From positions 1-22,879 of the IMG/VR virus record IMGVR_UViG_2695420699_000018: 22,879 nt of DNA. The stretch is one strand, 5' to 3'. A program made the translations under genes and the position numbers. The stretch comes from a virus (Duplodnaviria; Heunggongvirae; Uroviricota; Caudoviricetes). The notes beneath the pieces are model-generated. The model saw only the letters and a program-made list of their open reading frames with translations. It had not been told where the DNA came from and did no database searches. Positions 12,037-21,511 of the stretch are shown in pieces. The first letter of the stretch is position 1. Every line of letters begins with the position of its first letter.

Positions 12037-12257
12037 GCAGCACCTCCGAGATGCTTCATGTTTTTTCCGGAGCGAAAGGCTATAAGCGGCATACTGACGC
12101 GGTAACTACGGCCCAGCGGTTCACAAATCACCTTCTGACATTCACGGTCAACCAGGCTAACACGTAGAACATGCCCTGCAGGTGTGGTGTACCACTGACC
12201 CGGACGAGGACAACGGAAAGTCTGATTGGTAAACCGTTTGAAAATATTCCGGATCAT
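12033..12257 (-). CDS. Hypothetical 74-aa protein, translationally coupled between the Rha-domain and O-like genes
   Basis: ATGA overlaps at both ends (12254/12257 and 12033/12036). No recognised family. Confidence 0.4.
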   Translation of the reverse strand: MIRNIFKRFTNQTFRCPRPGQWYTTPAGHVLRVSLVDRECQKVICEPLGRSYRVSMPLIAFRSGKNMKHLGGAA

Positions 12258-13405
12258 TTGCGCCCCCTTACCTCTGAAGGGTTCAGCGACAAATTTATGA
12301 GGCAGGCCAGTGCCGAAGCATCATTAATATAGTCATACAAGCTAACAGCCAGCGGAGATTCGGCTTTTGCCAACATAGGATAAAGCTGCTGCAGCCAGAC
12401 CTGATGAATTGATGAAATGTAGGAATAGAGAACGCTGGCGTTATGTGCAACGTCGCTCAGTACAGAGGGATTTGAAAGCTGTTTCTCCATCTGGTTAAAG
12501 GCATTGATGTATGCCTCTTTGAACTGGGCAGCACGTTTACCCGTGAAACCCATAGCAAGAAACGCAAAGCCGTCGCGGGTTATTTGGTAGCAAGGAAGTT
12601 TGCGACCTGTGCAATCAGTGTAATCACTCACCGAAAAATTGCGGGCAGTGAATGATGCTGAGCATTCAAGCGTGCGGATCTTTTTCAGTACATCGTCATG
12701 ACGTTTGGAGAAGAAGTTGGCAACAGCCAGGGATGAAGTAACAGCCTGACCATCAACGATGGCAATTTCAGGTTGAGTGAGGGTTGGGATCGTAGCCATG
12801 ATGGCAGCCTCTTTGGTGATTTTTAATAACTCACCACCAAGGCTTTCCACGACCTTATTGGTGGTGAGACGTACAGGGGTGGAAATACCGGTCACCAAAG
12901 AACCCGGCCCAACCGAAGTTGGCCCTGCACGCCCCACCATAATTTGGGCGTAATGCTGCTCATGACACAAAAAAACCGCAAGAGCGCGGTTGTGCGCTTT
13001 GGTGAATTCCGGGTTTCCACGCCCGGCACCCGTTTTATAAGGTGCCTGAACAGTGTAACGTCCCGGAATGGCAGAATCAATGTGCTGGTGGTCCTTCACA
13101 CTCAACAAAATCACGCCTGAATTTCCACAAAGGACTAAAGCACTCATGCGGGTAGTCTTTGCGAAGATAGATAACGCGCTGTGTTTCTGGTTCCCAACGA
13201 ATAACATGGACATAAAGCCCTCTTCCGTCACGAAACCAGCGGTTAAGTTCCTGCACAACTCGCCCCCCACAGTCAGGTAAAGTTCTCTGTGGTTACTTAC
13301 AGCCAGGTGATTTGGTAATCTGCATTCATGCCGTAACAACAGGTGTTCAGCGACACTGACCACCAGCTGTTGCGACAAACGGTTATTTGCCGTTAAACTG
13401 TTCAT
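12254..13405 (-). CDS. Rha-family phage regulatory protein with an uncharacterised about 200-aa N-terminal extension
   Basis: C-terminal half has the Phage_pRha-like core (…FFSKRHDDVLKKIRTLE…YQITRDGFAFLAMGFTGKRAAQFKEAYINAF). The frame is open for about 600 nt upstream and its ATG at 13405 makes an ATGA overlap with the preceding gene. An internal ATG at 12799 with strong AAAGAGG SD is an alternative start for a 182-aa Rha-only product. Confidence 0.5.
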   Translation of the reverse strand: MNSLTANNRLSQQLVVSVAEHLLLRHECRLPNHLAVSNHRELYLTVGGELCRNLTAGFVTEEGFMSMLFVGNQKHSALSIFAKTTRMSALVLCGNSGVILLSVKDHQHIDSAIPGRYTVQAPYKTGAGRGNPEFTKAHNRALAVFLCHEQHYAQIMVGRAGPTSVGPGSLVTGISTPVRLTTNKVVESLGGELLKITKEAAIMATIPTLTQPEIAIVDGQAVTSSLAVANFFSKRHDDVLKKIRTLECSASFTARNFSVSDYTDCTGRKLPCYQITRDGFAFLAMGFTGKRAAQFKEAYINAFNQMEKQLSNPSVLSDVAHNASVLYSYISSIHQVWLQQLYPMLAKAESPLAVSLYDYINDASALACLINLSLNPSEVRGRK

Positions 13406-13987: not shown

Positions 13988-14251
13988 TTACGCAGCTGAA
14001 CCGCTAACTTTTGAATAGCACTCAGGTAATCCATCATTTGGATTGGGGTAAATATCAGGACGCAGTTCATGAGGGGTCACGGACCAGTTTCCCAACTCAC
14101 AAAGTTGTAAAACCCGTTCTGACGGGACTTGATTGTTAATTACCCAATTAGCGACGGATTGAGTGGACTTAAAACCAAAGCGACGGGCTACTTCAGATAA
14201 AGATTTTCCCGCAGCTTTTACTGCTTTCTCTGTGTAGTTTTGAGATGACAT
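13988..14251 (-). CDS. Cro-like HTH regulator (YdaS/Cro family)
   Basis: HTH segment (SLSEVARRFGFKSTQSVANWV). Divergent from the CI-like gene across an operator-rich intergenic region. AGGAGA SD. Confidence 0.7.
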   Translation of the reverse strand: MSSQNYTEKAVKAAGKSLSEVARRFGFKSTQSVANWVINNQVPSERVLQLCELGNWSVTPHELRPDIYPNPNDGLPECYSKVSGSAA

Positions 14252-14260
14252 ACCTTTCTC

Positions 14261-14367
14261 CTCTGAAATTCAGAGGGATAATGCTACTTAAAATAGCAAA
14301 ATGCAACTACTTAAAATAGAAATGACTAGCGTATGTGATGTGAGTAATCTTCTACCTATGGTAGAAG
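14261..14367. promoter_or_regulatory. Immunity-region operator cluster (OR-like)
   Basis: Palindrome CTCTGAA-A-TTCAGAG at 14261..14275; two 13-bp direct repeats CTACTTAAAATAG at 14284..14296 and 14307..14319; palindrome CTTCTACC-TAT-GGTAGAAG at 14349..14367 overlapping the proposed cI ATG. Shared half-site theme CTAC…GTAG. Confidence 0.6.
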
Positions 14368-15062
14368 AACAGAAGTATCCAGATTTCGCCAAGAGACTAA
14401 ACGAGCTAATGACAAACAAGGGAATTTCTGTCACCCAACTCAAAAGTCTTGTGGGCGTTACATATGAAATGGCGCGGCGATACACAATCGGCGCTGCGAA
14501 GCCTCGTGCCTCTGTCATGAATAAACTTGCATTGGCTCTGGGGGTATCAGCTTCATATTTAGAATATGGTGTTGGCGAGAGAGAAGGATGTAAGGAAATG
14601 ACAAGCATCCCCAATCCAACAAAACCCGATGTATACAGGATAGAAGTTTTGGATCTTAGCGTTAGCGCGGGACCTGGGACCTATATGCTTTCAGACTATG
14701 TTGATGTGCTCTACGCCATTGAGTTCACAACAGAACATGCCCGTTCTCTTTTCGGCAACCGTTCTCAGGATGATATTAAGGTTATGACTGTAAATGGCGA
14801 TAGTATGTCCCCTACTCTCGTTTCCGGAGACCGACTGTTTGTCGACATTTCTGTTCGTCACTTCCAGACTGATGGAGTTTACTCTTTCGTTTACGGTAAG
14901 ACTTTTCATGTTAAACGTCTTCAAATGCAAGGTGACAAGCTAGCCGTTCTTTCGGATAACCCCGCCTATGAGAAATGGTACATCGATGAAAAATCACAGG
15001 ATCAGCTTTATGTAATGGGCAAGGCGTTGATTCACGAATCTATAAAATACAACCGATTGTAA
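14358..15062 (+). CDS. CI-like prophage repressor (N-terminal HTH plus C-terminal S24 LexA-like peptidase domain)
   Basis: HTH (…FAKRLNELMTNKGISVTQLKSLVGVTYEMARRY…) and S24 motifs (GDSMSPT active-site Ser; Lys in …FHVKRL…). Track start at 14301 lies inside operator repeats; the Met at 14358 (MVEEQKYPDF…) is preferred, possibly leaderless as for lambda cI. Confidence 0.85.
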   Translation: MVEEQKYPDFAKRLNELMTNKGISVTQLKSLVGVTYEMARRYTIGAAKPRASVMNKLALALGVSASYLEYGVGEREGCKEMTSIPNPTKPDVYRIEVLDLSVSAGPGTYMLSDYVDVLYAIEFTTEHARSLFGNRSQDDIKVMTVNGDSMSPTLVSGDRLFVDISVRHFQTDGVYSFVYGKTFHVKRLQMQGDKLAVLSDNPAYEKWYIDEKSQDQLYVMGKALIHESIKYNRL

Positions 15063-15106: not shown

Positions 15107-15469
15107 ATGAAATCTGAACTATTTCATAGCGAAGCAAATTCAGAAATTATCACTGCAGATGAGTTTATTGATTTCATAAACTCTTTCAAAAAGCCTTTAA
15201 TTTGCCAAATTTGCGGAAATCAATCATGGAGTGTAGTCGGTACTCTAGAACTTGAAGTTGAAGACAATCAGCCAAAACATCACGTAATCGAAGTTCTCAG
15301 CTATGCCCAATACAAACCTGAAACTGATAGCGCTATAAATTATCCTGGTGGTATGCCGCTGTTTCGAATCACCTGTGATCACTGTGCACATGTACTTCTT
15401 TTTTCTTATAAAAAAGCTAGATCATTGATCCAAAAAAGAAAAAATGAAAAAGAAGAGGATGGAAAATGA
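15107..15469 (+). CDS. Hypothetical zinc-ribbon-like protein (two CxxC pairs, basic C-terminal tail), first gene of an AT-rich module downstream of cI
   Basis: CQIC (about aa 33) and CDHC (about aa 91); tail KKARSLIQKRKNEKEEDGK. AAGGA SD. Strong AT bias. Same strand as cI and immediately downstream of it. Confidence 0.6.
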   Translation: MKSELFHSEANSEIITADEFIDFINSFKKPLICQICGNQSWSVVGTLELEVEDNQPKHHVIEVLSYAQYKPETDSAINYPGGMPLFRITCDHCAHVLLFSYKKARSLIQKRKNEKEEDGK

Positions 15470-16098
15470 CGCGACCTTATCTCAGAGCAGTACCAAACTG
15501 TGGATCTGGTATTGATAAATGTGACCTTTACCCCAATGTTAAGAACAGGCTGCGCGTCGGTATAGAAGAAATGTATACTGATTTTATCGAATCCGCAGAT
15601 GAAACTTACAAAACTGATGGGGGAAATAAAATGTCATCAGTTAGTCGAGAAGAAATTCAAGCACTTTTAGCTGCCAATAAAGCAGAAATGGAGTCCATTG
15701 CATCCTCTATTAGAGTTGAAATGGCTTTATCTCGCGAGAACACAAACGTTCAGCTAGCATCTCTAAATTCAGCCATCAATTCTATCTCTTCGAAAATCGA
15801 AGGCAAAATGGACAGTGTTGACGGGGATGTGAAGGCCATCAATGGTAGATTCGAAGGTATACAAGGCCAAATTACTGGAATAAATACAGCCATTAGTGGT
15901 ATTCAATCTGGAATTTCTACCAGACTTGCTATTTTTGGAGTTATCATTGCGGTCATAGTTGCATTACCTAGCATAATTTCTGCTTTTAAAGATACTTCGC
16001 CAGTAGTTCAACCAGTTACACAACAACCAAGTGTTAAACATCTCAACCAAGAACCAATTACTCCACAAGTATTACCTCCGCAGGGAAAAGCAAACTAA
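15466..16098 (+). CDS. Hypothetical coiled-coil protein with a single C-terminal TM anchor and P/Q-rich tail, second gene of the cI-adjacent module
   Basis: ATGA overlap with the upstream gene (15466..15469). Heptad-like S/I/A/N/G-rich central region; hydrophobic helix LAIFGVIIAVIVALPSIISAF; tail …PVVQPVTQQPSVKHLNQEPITPQVLPPQGKAN. Alternative internal start at 15634 (MSSVSREE…). Confidence 0.55.
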   Translation: MTRPYLRAVPNCGSGIDKCDLYPNVKNRLRVGIEEMYTDFIESADETYKTDGGNKMSSVSREEIQALLAANKAEMESIASSIRVEMALSRENTNVQLASLNSAINSISSKIEGKMDSVDGDVKAINGRFEGIQGQITGINTAISGIQSGISTRLAIFGVIIAVIVALPSIISAFKDTSPVVQPVTQQPSVKHLNQEPITPQVLPPQGKAN

Positions 16099-16121
16099 AC
16101 CGGCTTTATGCCGGTTTTTTT
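16098..16121 (+). terminator. Intrinsic terminator closing the cI-proximal operon
   Basis: AACCGGC-tttat-GCCGGTT followed by TTTTTTT directly after the stop codon at 16096..16098. Confidence 0.8.
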
Positions 16122-16225: not shown

Positions 16226-16262
16226 CTACTTTTAGTTGTTGATTTTTGCTACTTTTGGTAGC
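16226..16262. promoter_or_regulatory. OL-like operator pair upstream of the early-left genes
   Basis: CTACTTTTAGTTG (16226..16238) and the palindrome GCTAC-TTTTG-GTAGC (16248..16262) echo the CTAC…GTAG half-sites of the cro/cI operator cluster. Confidence 0.5.
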
Positions 16263-16368
16263 AGAATTATTTTAACGACAACGAACAGGCAGGACGCCCA
16301 CGAAGTAGCCGCCGGTGGCGTATGAATGACCGGATGATTCGTTAAATACTATGTGTAAGAGAGCGCAA

Positions 16369-16572
16369 ATGAACCGTTATTTCACATGTTCGTTTTGTGG
16401 CGCAAACGAGCTGCAGGCAAAAAAAATCATCGCCAAAGGCGGAAAAGATGAAGTTGCTATCTGCTCTGAGTGCGTAGTCTTGTGTGTCGGGGCATTAATT
16501 AATATCAGCACAACTATTCAGTTCACACCAAATGAGAATGCGCCTTTAGATGCGCGGAAATCTGGAGGTTAA
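16369..16572 (+). CDS. Stand-alone ClpX-type C4 zinc-finger (ZBD-like) protein
   Basis: FTCSFCGANELQAKKIIAKGGKDEVAICSECVVLCVGAL aligns with the ClpX N-terminal zinc-binding domain (recalled [36 protein letters not shown]). Track ORF starts at 16351; the ATG at 16369 (MNRYFTCSFCG…) is equally plausible. Confidence 0.65.
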   Translation: MNRYFTCSFCGANELQAKKIIAKGGKDEVAICSECVVLCVGALINISTTIQFTPNENAPLDARKSGG

Positions 16573-16580
16573 AGAACAAA

Positions 16581-16856
16581 ATGAAAGTCCAGATTTTAAA
16601 CAATAACTGTGAAGTCGTTTGGTCATACGACATAGCCGCCCCTGTAGATCAGAGCGGCGATAGCTGGACCAATGGGAAACATCAGATTATGGCTGGAGTT
16701 GTGTTCTCTTTACGCCGTGCTTTGGAACAGGCTGAAGTATTTCCATCAGACCCTGAATGGAAATGGCCTTTTTCTATTTGTCCAAATTCGGAGAGTACAT
16801 TTCAGAAAATTGGTCAGAAAGTCGCACTCGAAGAGCATCAGCCAACTGTTTCCTGA
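16581..16856 (+). CDS. Hypothetical 91-aa protein
   Basis: Track ORF immediately after the ZBD-like gene. Its 3' end overlaps a convergent minus-strand ORF by 83 nt, so the true 3' extent is uncertain. Confidence 0.35.
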   Translation: MKVQILNNNCEVVWSYDIAAPVDQSGDSWTNGKHQIMAGVVFSLRRALEQAEVFPSDPEWKWPFSICPNSESTFQKIGQKVALEEHQPTVS

Positions 16857-17019: not shown

Positions 17020-17274
17020 TTGATTTTCCTTTTATGTATACGGGCTTAAAAGGATACCACCGAGCCTGAAGTGGTGAAAAGACAGGCACATAACAGCTAA
17101 GTATTTTCAACCAGAGAGAATCCTTAGCGTTGTGGTGAATGCGGCTCAGCGCACGCGGGTTAAGGTTGAGGCTGACAGTCGACCTTCTGTGGATACCCAC
17201 CCGCCTGGTGTGCAACCTTCGCCAGGCACCGGGAGGCACCCGGCACCACAACTTTATGCTGTGTGTAGTCCTGG

Positions 17275-17319
17275 CGGTACCAGTTTGTACCCTTGCTTCC
17301 GGCTGGTACCGTCCTTTTT
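17275..17319 (+). terminator. Terminator-like hairpin at the 3' end of a GC-rich, apparently non-coding structured segment
   Basis: CGGTACCAG (17275..17283) pairs with CTGGTACCG (17303..17311) around a 19-nt loop, followed by TCC then TTTTT (17315..17319). Confidence 0.35.
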
Positions 17320-17456
17320 ACAAAACAGAGAAGAGCATCACCGGACGACGGGCTCATAACCCAATCCATCCGGGCGGCTGCCACCGCAGGTGTTCTTCTC
17401 TGTTTTGTGGAGAAACTAATCGGCCTTGCAGGGTCGATATGATGAGGAGCAGCAAA

Positions 17457-20031: not shown

Positions 20032-20381
20032 TGGAGCCATACAGCCTCACACTCGATGAGGCCTGTCATTTTCTCAAGATATCCAGACCGACTGCCATTA
20101 ACTGGATACGCACAGGGCGTCTTCAGGCAACACGCAAAGATCCCACTAAGAATAAATCTCCTTACCTCACAACACGACAAGCCTGCATTGCGGCTCTTCA
20201 GTCTCCGCTGCATACTGTCCAGGTGAGCGCGGGTGATGGCATAACAGAGGAAAGAAAATGTCACTCTTCCGCAGAGGTGAAATATGGTACGCCAGTTTCA
20301 CATTGCCGAACGGTAAAAGATTTAAACAGTCTCTTGGAACAAAGGACAAAAGGCAGGCGACAGAACTCCATGACAAGCTAA
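20031..20381 (+). CDS. xis: Excisionase-like / AlpA-type HTH protein (putative Xis)
   Basis: [37 protein letters not shown]… is AlpA/Xis-like. GAGGTGA SD. Immediately upstream of the integrase; the frame runs 124 nt into it, so the 3' end is uncertain. Confidence 0.5.
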
Positions 20382-21421
20382 AGGCTGAAGCATGGCGGGT
20401 CAGCAAACTTGGTGAAATACCTGATATAACGTTCGAGGAAGCGTGTGTCAGGTGGCTTGAAGAGAAAGCACATAAAAAATCACTGGACGATGACAAAAGC
20501 CGGATCGGATTCTGGCTTCAACATTTCGCAGGAATGCAACTAAGAGACATTACTGAATCAAAAATTTATTCAGCAATGCAGAAAATGACGAACCGGCGTC
20601 ATGAGGAAAACTGGAAACTCAGGGCAGAAGCATGCAGAAAAAAAGGGAAACCTGTTCCAGAATACACGCCAAAACCAGCGTCCGTTGCAACGAAGGCTAC
20701 GCATCTTTCATTTATAAAGGCCCTACTAAGAGCCGCAGAGCGTGAATGGAAAATGCTGGATAAGGCACCAATTATTAAAGTGCCTCAACCAAAGAATAAA
20801 CGGATCCGCTGGCTGGAGCCCCATGAAGCACAAAGGCTGATTGATGAATGTCCGGAGCCATTAAAGTCTGTTGTTGAATTTGCACTGGCAACAGGCTTAA
20901 GACGCTCGAACATCATCAACCTTGAATGGCAACAAATAGATATGCAGCGCCGGGTGGCATGGATAAACCCGGAAGAGAGTAAATCAAACCGCGCAATTGG
21001 CGTTGCGCTGAATGATACTGCATGTCGCGTATTGAAAAAACAAATCGGGAATCATCACCGTTGGGTATTTGTGTACAAGGAAAGCTGTACCAAACCAGAC
21101 GGAACGAAAGCGCCAACAGTAAGGAAGATGCGGTATGACGCAAACACAGCCTGGAAAGCGGCGCTGAGACGGGCTGGTATTGATGATTTCAGATTTCACG
21201 ACTTGAGACACACCTGGGCAAGTTGGCTGGTTCAAGCCGGAGTCCCGTTGTCAGTGTTACAGGAAATGGGAGGCTGGGAGTCTATCGAAATGGTTCGTCG
21301 ATATGCTCACCTTGCACCTAATCACCTTACCGAACACGCACGGCAAATAGACTCGATCCTGAACCCATCGGTCCCAAATTTGTCCCAGTCAAAAAATAAG
21401 GAAGGTACTAATGATGTGTAA
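20258..21421 (+). CDS. int: Tyrosine-type site-specific integrase (phage integrase family)
   Basis: C-terminal catalytic region …[42 protein letters not shown]… Stop codon 15 bp from the 3' end of the tRNA. Confidence 0.95.
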
Positions 21422-21435
21422 CTTATTGATTTAAA

Positions 21436-21511
21436 TGGTGCCGATAATAGGAGTCGAACCTACGACCTTCGCATTACGAATGCGCTGCTCTACCAACTGA
21501 GCTATATCGGC
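21436..21511 (-). tRNA. thrW: tRNA-Thr (anticodon CGU)
   Basis: Reverse complement of 21436..21511 is GCCGATATAGCTCAGTTGGTAGAGCAGCGCATTCGTAATGCGAAGGTCGTAGGTTCGACTCCTATTATCGGCACCA: 76 nt, cloverleaf-compatible, anticodon loop TTCGTAA, CCA end. Adjacent to proA as for thrW in E. coli. Confidence 0.95.

Follow-up and report, generated by a model that had tools for sequence, protein, structure and literature searches.

What might a phage do with ClpX's zinc-binding domain (ZBD) when that domain is encoded on its own, as the first gene of an early-left operon? The question is raised by a gene in the virus record IMGVR_UViG_2695420699_000018 (Caudoviricetes), whose positions 1 to 22,879 make up the window analysed here (22,879 nucleotides, nt). 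The window forms part of an SfV/CPS-53-like lambdoid prophage of Escherichia coli. A preliminary description of this DNA had pointed to an open reading frame (ORF) at 16351..16572 and proposed that its product imitates the ZBD of ClpX and modulates host ClpXP proteolysis. The ORF exists, with 73 amino acids (aa) counted from the first ATG and likely 67 aa from a second ATG at 16369. Its product is a C4 zinc-binding domain of the ClpX type that lacks an ATPase, and it may serve as a decoy towards host ClpXP.

A ClpX-type zinc-binding domain without an ATPase

The 73-aa form matched the Pfam family zf-C4_ClpX (PF06689) over residues 12–46 at 41.3 bits (E-value 1.4e-10), well above the 27 bits set as gathering cut-off, which bears out the C4 ClpX-type assignment (CSFCG … ICxECVxLC) made in the preliminary description. 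Homologues of the family scored 26–41 bits against the same profile. All PDB sequence matches at E<0.01 were ClpX or isolated ClpX ZBD. Furthermore, a BLASTP comparison with the N-terminus of E. coli ClpX gave 16/37 identities (43%), the phage protein having one loop longer by 3 residues; the ClpX query used is consistent with the 2DS5 alignment. The earlier statement that no AAA+ module is present was also borne out, as the scores for the NCBIfam ClpX equivalogs, 25.8 and 22.7 bits, fell far short of the respective cut-offs (359 and 371).

In the 67-aa numbering used from here on, the four cysteines C7, C10, C32 and C35 form a CxxC ... CxxC arrangement and align with the ligand cysteines of ClpX. 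They are kept in all aligned family forms and lost in two degenerate copies (P0008 and the 35-aa frameshifts). Two motifs, CSFCG and ICxECVxLC, together with the strand KKIIAxG, are shared with ClpX and do not vary within the family. An AlphaFold2 model built from the family alignment, of moderate confidence, had a predicted local distance difference test score (pLDDT) of 70–81 over residues 1–40 and a helix at 33–49, and it presents a predicted treble-clef fold with beta hairpins followed by a C-terminal helix. When this model was searched with Foldseek, the only meaningful PDB matches were the ClpX ZBD structures 2DS5, 2DS6 and 2DS8, with a template modelling (TM) score of 0.78–0.81 on the target, a root-mean-square deviation of 1.5–1.7 Å and 36–39% identity.

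The phage protein thus shares with the ClpX ZBD the CxxC...CxxC site, the two cysteine motifs and, as modelled, the hairpin-plus-helix treble-clef fold. It differs from ClpX in being free of the AAA+ ATPase, in its identity of about 40%, in a loop 3 residues longer, in an invariant alanine (A30) that replaces ClpX Y34, and in its free variable tail. By analogy with the ClpX ZBD, we infer that it binds zinc and forms homodimers. PADLOC defence models gave no match at E<=0.01 for the zinc-domain protein or its downstream neighbours.

The domain name itself is already in the databases, and the protein joins the annotated stand-alone zf-C4_ClpX proteins. The PGAP product name is ‘ClpX C4-type zinc finger protein’, and the protein belongs to PHROG family 5259, whose function is listed as unknown. 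In full-text literature searches, phage-borne or stand-alone ClpX zinc domains appeared in annotation-level mentions only, and no work on their function came up. The zinc domain occurs in four PHROG families (5259 and three others), and a profile search retrieved 632 cluster representatives at E<=1e-3. Among the 150 of these 632 clusters listed, most were short stand-alone proteins or tandem arrays of 2–4 ZBDs. ZBD-only proteins, as judged from sequence, form a large class. The tandem arrays without an ATPase (P0016, P0024, P0028 and others) are 100–300 aa long with 2–4 copies; P0024 scored 220 bits against zf-C4_ClpX with 4 repeats, and one protein of 2,505 aa contained 37 ZBD-matched stretches.

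Translation start, selection and the C-terminal tail

Translation likely starts at the second ATG, giving a coding sequence (CDS) of 67 aa at 16369..16572 on the plus strand, and not at the alternative upstream ATG at 16351 (73 aa). The start was placed there because the homologues all begin with MN.Y(F/Y)TCSFC, because a Shine-Dalgarno (SD)-like AAGAGAG at 16357..16363 (plus strand) lies 5 nt 5' of the ATG at 16369, and because RefSeq/PGAP calls the same 204-nt CDS in E. coli strain 998 (WP_001083098.1). At the position of AAGAGAG, the Salmonella homologues carry AGGAG.

The zinc-binding-domain part, encoded at 16369..16506 (plus strand), comprises residues 1–46 with Cys 7, 10, 32 and 35, and corresponds to the conserved block of the family. 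Comparison of divergent forms from E. coli and Salmonella showed strong purifying selection on these 46 codons, with a median ratio of nonsynonymous to synonymous substitution rates (dN/dS) of 0.12 (range 0.07–0.30) at a dS of about 1.8. The variable C-terminal tail is encoded at 16507..16569 (plus strand); it comprises residues 47–67 and is predicted to be disordered, with pLDDT <50 at 51–67. Homologues range from 57 to 121 aa, with residues 1–46 nearly unchanged and tails that differ in length and sequence, and the extensions that lengthen some homologues at the C-terminus contain no Pfam domain. The long-tailed homologues P0009, P0010, P0013 and P0021 have in common a weak motif near the C-terminus, (I/L)x(I/V)xFxx(A/S)P, and the stretch TIQFTPNENAP in the tail of the phage protein (16513..16551) resembles it. 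This motif might be a beta-strand-forming docking peptide.

Position in the early-left operon and distribution

The ORF at 16351..16572 is the first ORF of its operon. This placement, which the preliminary description had given as first after the left-operator (OL)-like sites, recurs in 80 viral contigs recovered via the protein and in Salmonella phage 118970_sal3, in all more than 80 E. coli and Salmonella loci, where the gene is always the first ORF after the PL-like promoter and directly follows the immunity region. Repressors adjoining the gene range from 26% to 98% identity to the window repressor or are unrecognisable; accordingly, the gene is part of the early-left module and is tied to no particular immunity cassette.

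The gene itself is found in few relatives. A homologue was present in only 4 of 50,697 phage records, in 98 of 5,426 complete E. coli genomes, and in 8 of 120 contigs chosen solely by the leader sequence upstream of the gene. In SfV, which is without the gene, the leader is followed directly by orf33 (PHROG 3195), and other small genes occupy the slot in relatives, such as kil in mEp237. The zinc-domain gene is thus optional cargo and not an analogue of N, because close relatives without it keep the operon and the leader. The earlier remark that the gene lies ‘where lambda has N’ stands as a matter of position; the analogy with N does not, given its lack in SfV and the kil gene that fills the slot in mEp237. 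No informative association emerged when the gene was checked for co-occurrence with its neighbours (cII-like, Rha, repressor type, yfdPQR).

Frameshifts, or out-of-frame fusions with part of yfdQ, affect a minority of copies (E. coli genomes H54 and H69–H77, the 35-aa forms, P0004 and P0008), and the first CxxC is lost in one plasmid copy. Decay is under way in some prophage copies.

A proposed decoy for ClpXP

We propose, by analogy with the host domain, that the phage protein is a decoy that keeps adaptor-dependent substrates from ClpXP, and we assign this reading a probability of roughly one in three (0.35). The gene would be transcribed from the repressor-controlled early-left promoter upon prophage induction or infection, and its product would act in trans in competition with the N-domain of ClpX itself. 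It would bind the adaptors and substrates that dock on this domain, such as SspB- or RssB-type adaptors and lambda-O-like or MuA-like substrates. Proteins dependent on the N-domain would then be selectively spared from ClpXP, and N-domain-independent degradation, for example of ssrA-tagged proteins, would go on. The general form of the proposal, in which temperate phages encode free ClpX docking domains as early decoys that blind ClpXP to N-domain-dependent substrates and leave ssrA control intact, is possible and slightly less probable.

Several published observations bear on this proposal. RssB-dependent sigma-S degradation is inhibited by free ClpX ZBD in trans, and deletion of the ZBD abolishes this degradation and leaves ssrA substrates unaffected (PMC7226468). 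Degradation of lambda O requires the ZBD, and a ClpX hydrophobic pocket around F16 and I46 is common to lambda O, trigger factor, SspB and RssB (PMC7804408). The decoy is plausible because a free ZBD inhibits RssB-mediated sigma-S turnover and because lambda O degradation depends on the ZBD; it is possibly widespread because of the four PHROG families and the hundreds of stand-alone or tandem ZBD-only clusters. In a weak comparison of surface conservation that covers the two ClpX pocket residues F16 and I46 (PMC7804408), the F16 equivalent in the phage protein, F9, was invariant in the family. Also in favour of the decoy are the similarity to ClpX and to nothing else, the place as first ORF after the PL-like promoter beside many repressor types, and the dN/dS of 0.12 over the domain.

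An experimental precedent is the laboratory ClpX ZBD competitor (PMC7226468, which cites Wojtyra et al. 2003), likewise a free ZBD without the ATPase. That competitor is a fragment of a host protein, whereas the phage protein is a naturally encoded, diverged, phage-borne and putative competitor.

A further set of observations counts against the decoy. In the same pocket comparison, the equivalent of ClpX I46 varies in the family (A/T/V/I/K). Identity to the E. coli ClpX ZBD is only about 36–43%, so that the protein is no close copy, and the family has invariants of its own, namely the 3-residue longer AKGGKDE loop and A30 for ClpX Y34. On the helix, V37, V40 and I44 stand in place of E. coli ClpX D41, N44 and R48, with V40 invariant and V37 and I44 variable. 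These family-specific residues, read from the alignment, hint at a specialised partner. Additionally, a preprint describes the clearance of repressor fragments by ClpXP in some systems (bioRxiv 10.1101/2022.09.18.507959), and blocking ClpXP could hinder induction. The gene is also dispensable for the phage type, since SfV and most relatives are without it and some prophages carry it with a frameshift.

Taken together, the earlier interpretation is partly supported: domain and placement hold, and the ClpXP decoy function is plausible by analogy. Its framing of the protein as a domain mimic is weakened because ZBD-like folds also serve outside ClpX (PMC5890618, PMC11119718) and because of the identity of about 40% with the family-specific invariants (AKG loop, A30). 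Its framing of the site by lambda N is weakened because the gene is missing from close relatives such as SfV and the slot is taken up by other genes.

Alternative explanations

A tentative alternative, nearly as probable as the decoy, is that the ClpX-like domain serves only as a compact dimeric scaffold for a target unrelated to ClpXP, such as a sigma factor of the host, RNA polymerase, a defence protein or a regulator of the phage. A precedent is CsfB (Gin), a small dimeric treble-clef zinc protein that is structurally nearest to the ClpX N-terminal domain and acts as an anti-sigma factor (PMC5890618), and cyanobacterial sigma-70 factors carry zf-C4_ClpX as an accessory domain (PMC11119718). 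The hundreds of stand-alone or tandem ZBD-only clusters (632 at E<=1e-3) and the four PHROG families likewise suggest uses outside ClpX. The invariant surface residues of the family that differ from E. coli ClpX would be unneeded for mere mimicry, and relatives use the slot for a variety of cargo directed at the host, kil in mEp237 being one example. Set against this, the similarity in sequence and fold is specific to the ClpX ZBD, and among the motifs kept in common with ClpX are two elements used by ClpX partners, the edge strand and the F16-equivalent pocket residue. The phage protein and CsfB of Bacillus subtilis (PDB 5N7Y; PMC5890618) are alike as small stand-alone treble-clef zinc proteins, with the fold, zinc binding and dimer predicted in the phage protein. 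However, CsfB is about 20% identical to ClpX, and the phage protein is clearly ClpX-type by profile: Gin/CsfB gave no Pfam match at E<=10, and CsfB was not among the Foldseek PDB matches.

It is rather improbable that the phage protein forms a mixed dimer with the ClpX N-domain, acting as an adaptor or anti-adaptor that reprograms the hexamer, with the variable tail as the cargo or regulatory part. Both the ClpX ZBD and CsfB form dimers in which the hairpins and the C-terminal helix make the contact (PMC5890618), and the phage family conserves the hydrophobic residues of this helix. The C-terminal extensions of the homologues vary over the same 57–121 aa range, and several carry the weak (I/L)x(I/V)xFxx(A/S)P motif; however, the tails are poorly conserved, predicted to be disordered and without a Pfam domain, and truncated or fused tails persist in genomes (P0004). 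The ClpX N-domains are paired within the hexamer, and on general grounds an exchange of partners already so paired may be unfavourable.

A role as an N-like early regulator, that is, a nucleic-acid-binding zinc protein controlling early-left transcription or antitermination, is very unlikely. In its favour are the position, which is that of lambda N, the lack of an N homologue in these phages, and the conserved structured RNA directly upstream. Nevertheless, the leader is kept in phages without the gene (SfV, ZF40, YeP1, mEp237, SPN3UB and the T5-like PSTCR5), and only 8 of the 120 leader-selected loci carry it. An arginine-rich motif is not present in the phage protein sequence, and no match to a nucleic-acid-binding family was found. 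The N-like role was rejected on the ground that relatives without the gene keep the operon and leader.

That the ORF is a decaying or neutral passenger without present function is scarcely credible: there are frameshifted or out-of-frame copies (6 loci with 35-aa forms, P0004, and copies of 221 or 223 nt that carry no annotation) and the gene is missing from most relatives, but dN/dS stays at 0.07–0.30 between the divergent E. coli and Salmonella forms (dS ~1.8), the start, SD sequence and position are conserved, and the four Cys are kept in the aligned forms.

Operators, promoter and a structured leader RNA

Two OL-like operator sites of 13 bp each were located upstream of the zinc-domain gene, at 16226..16238 (CTACTTTTAGTTG) and 16249..16261 (CTACTTTTGGTAG). 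They are built from CTAC..GTAG half-sites (CTAC-N5-GTAG-type) that are common to three cro/cI intergenic sites (14284, 14307 and 14352). The operator pattern had 5 matches against 1.47 expected, a number reached in 2 of 100 shuffles, in agreement with the operators read in the preliminary description. From its sequence, the segment at 16239..16267 (plus strand) is taken as a PL-like promoter, with a -35 element TTGATT at 16239..16244, a 17-nt spacer with an operator inside, and a -10 element CAGAAT at 16262..16267. This candidate aligns with a near-consensus TTGACA/CATAAT promoter of SfV; a consensus promoter scan did not flag it (8/12, below threshold), and it was read by eye. The boundary of the immunity cassette lies directly 3' of the PL-like promoter.

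Between this promoter and the zinc-domain gene sits a structured leader RNA of 66 nt at 16279..16344, whose conservation exceeds that of the gene itself. It consists of a P1 outer helix, an invariant P2 hairpin (GGC-AGGAC-GCC) and a covarying P3 hairpin. Its strand (plus) was taken from the orientation of the gene, as G-U counts were indecisive. The leader recurs 3' of PL in many lambdoid phages without N. Its core, GGCAGGACGCCCACGAAGTAGC, is invariant in temperate phages of E. coli, Shigella, Salmonella, Pectobacterium, Yersinia and Aeromonas, and T5-like Providencia phages have a slightly altered copy. In six annotated related phages, the leader is intergenic and lies ahead of a variable same-strand first gene; in the five temperate ones, it is located 3' of the repressor gene.

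Across 35 distinct leader sequences, pairing was observed in 95.3% of cells compared with 70.6% in shuffles (0 of 500 reached the observed value). The covariation score was 0.628 against 0.165 in shuffled alignments, and it fell to <=0.13 with the partners slid by 1–3 columns; compensatory changes were found in 10 of 14 pairs. The leader covariance model scored 89.7 bits (E=6e-31) on the single copy in the window and found the Providencia copy, which lies outside the seed, with 69.2 bits. The single-sequence fold was not unusual (z=0.07), and Rfam gave no match to the leader even at E<=10. The leader contains two GGA motifs, which recall CsrA sites.

A lambdoid phage survey describes this phage type as one without an N homologue that may use an RNA such as put (PMC12315714). 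HK022 put resembles the leader as a structured RNA of 60–70 nt directly 3' of PL in a lambdoid phage without N (PMC9378689), but it has two long stem-loops, whereas the window leader has an enclosing helix with two hairpins in one copy. Homology with HK022 put was rejected, as neither the core motif nor the covariance model matched in HK022 PL/PR, including putL and putR; putL was located in HK022 with its numbering checked against the cryo-EM paper (PMC9378689). The leader is a candidate for a put-like antiterminator or another control element of the early transcript in N-less lambdoid phages, a proposal drawn from sequence and covariation. As such, it is a concrete candidate for filling the gap in early antitermination or regulatory elements stated in PMC12315714.

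Prophage setting and neighbouring genes

The immunity region of the window contains a cro-like gene at 13988..14251 (minus strand) and a LexA/cI-type repressor gene at about 14358..15062 (plus strand). After the repressor gene, and ahead of a strong intrinsic terminator (16097..16117), two extra overlapping genes are encoded on the plus strand, at 15107..15469 and 15466..16098. The first product has 120 aa with a CxxC...CxxC pattern (PHROG 4293), and the second (PHROG 5820), of 210 aa, combines a long helical region with a hydrophobic segment at the C-terminus and is weakly similar to MakE and PbeC. The pair sits where lambda has rexAB and is rare in related loci (0/112 and 1/112). These are candidate lysogen-expressed exclusion or defence genes.

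Beyond the terminator, an intergenic region is followed by the plus-strand operon, which runs via yfdP, yfdQ and yfdR homologues to xis and int. The second gene of the operon, at 16581..16856 (plus strand), belongs to PHROG 3195, is the equivalent of SfV orf33, and starts 8 nt past the stop codon of the zinc-domain gene. It is an independent module, because it is found both with and without the zinc-domain gene. Farther along, about 440 nt at 17020..17456 without a convincing ORF are flanked by a convergent PHROG 3311 gene and yfdP; the counterpart in E. coli strain 998 was called a frameshifted hypothetical gene by PGAP (L002 10032..10342). The integrase gene int (20258..21421) forms the end of the operon, and directly beyond it lies a tRNA gene at 21439..21511 (minus strand), which is probably the prophage attachment site.

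Furthermore, two Rfam matches above gathering score were identified on the minus strand, both within the 5' part of a Rha/Ash-family regulator ORF (12254..13405): a C4 antisense RNA at 12857..12944 (83.6 bits) and an isrK Hfq-binding RNA at 12969..13045 (67.9 bits). This pair resembles a c4-ant-like module of the P1/P7 type, here embedded within the early-right operon.

Implications for phage control of host proteolysis

Phage inhibitors of host AAA+ proteases include lambda cIII, which acts on FtsH, T4 PinA and T7 gp4.5, which act on Lon, and SPO1 gp53, which acts on ClpC. Among these, cIII is a small FtsH inhibitor encoded in the lambda PL operon, and the zinc-domain protein is likewise a small protein of a PL-type early-left operon, with a proposed role in sparing proteins from a protease. 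The phage protein has no sequence relation to cIII, PinA, gp4.5 or gp53, and the proposed mimicry of a docking domain is not their known mechanism.

Should the phage protein bind another partner instead, that activity would provide a first function for a large class, the uncharacterised proteins made of ZBDs only. If the decoy reading is true, the protein would be a natural selective inhibitor of one branch of ClpXP, parallel to cIII and FtsH via docking-domain mimicry, and would add a new variant to the anti-protease strategies of phages. It would also serve as a small tool separating adaptor-dependent from adaptor-independent functions of ClpXP, and would give a handle on the phage and host proteins that need protection early in lytic growth.

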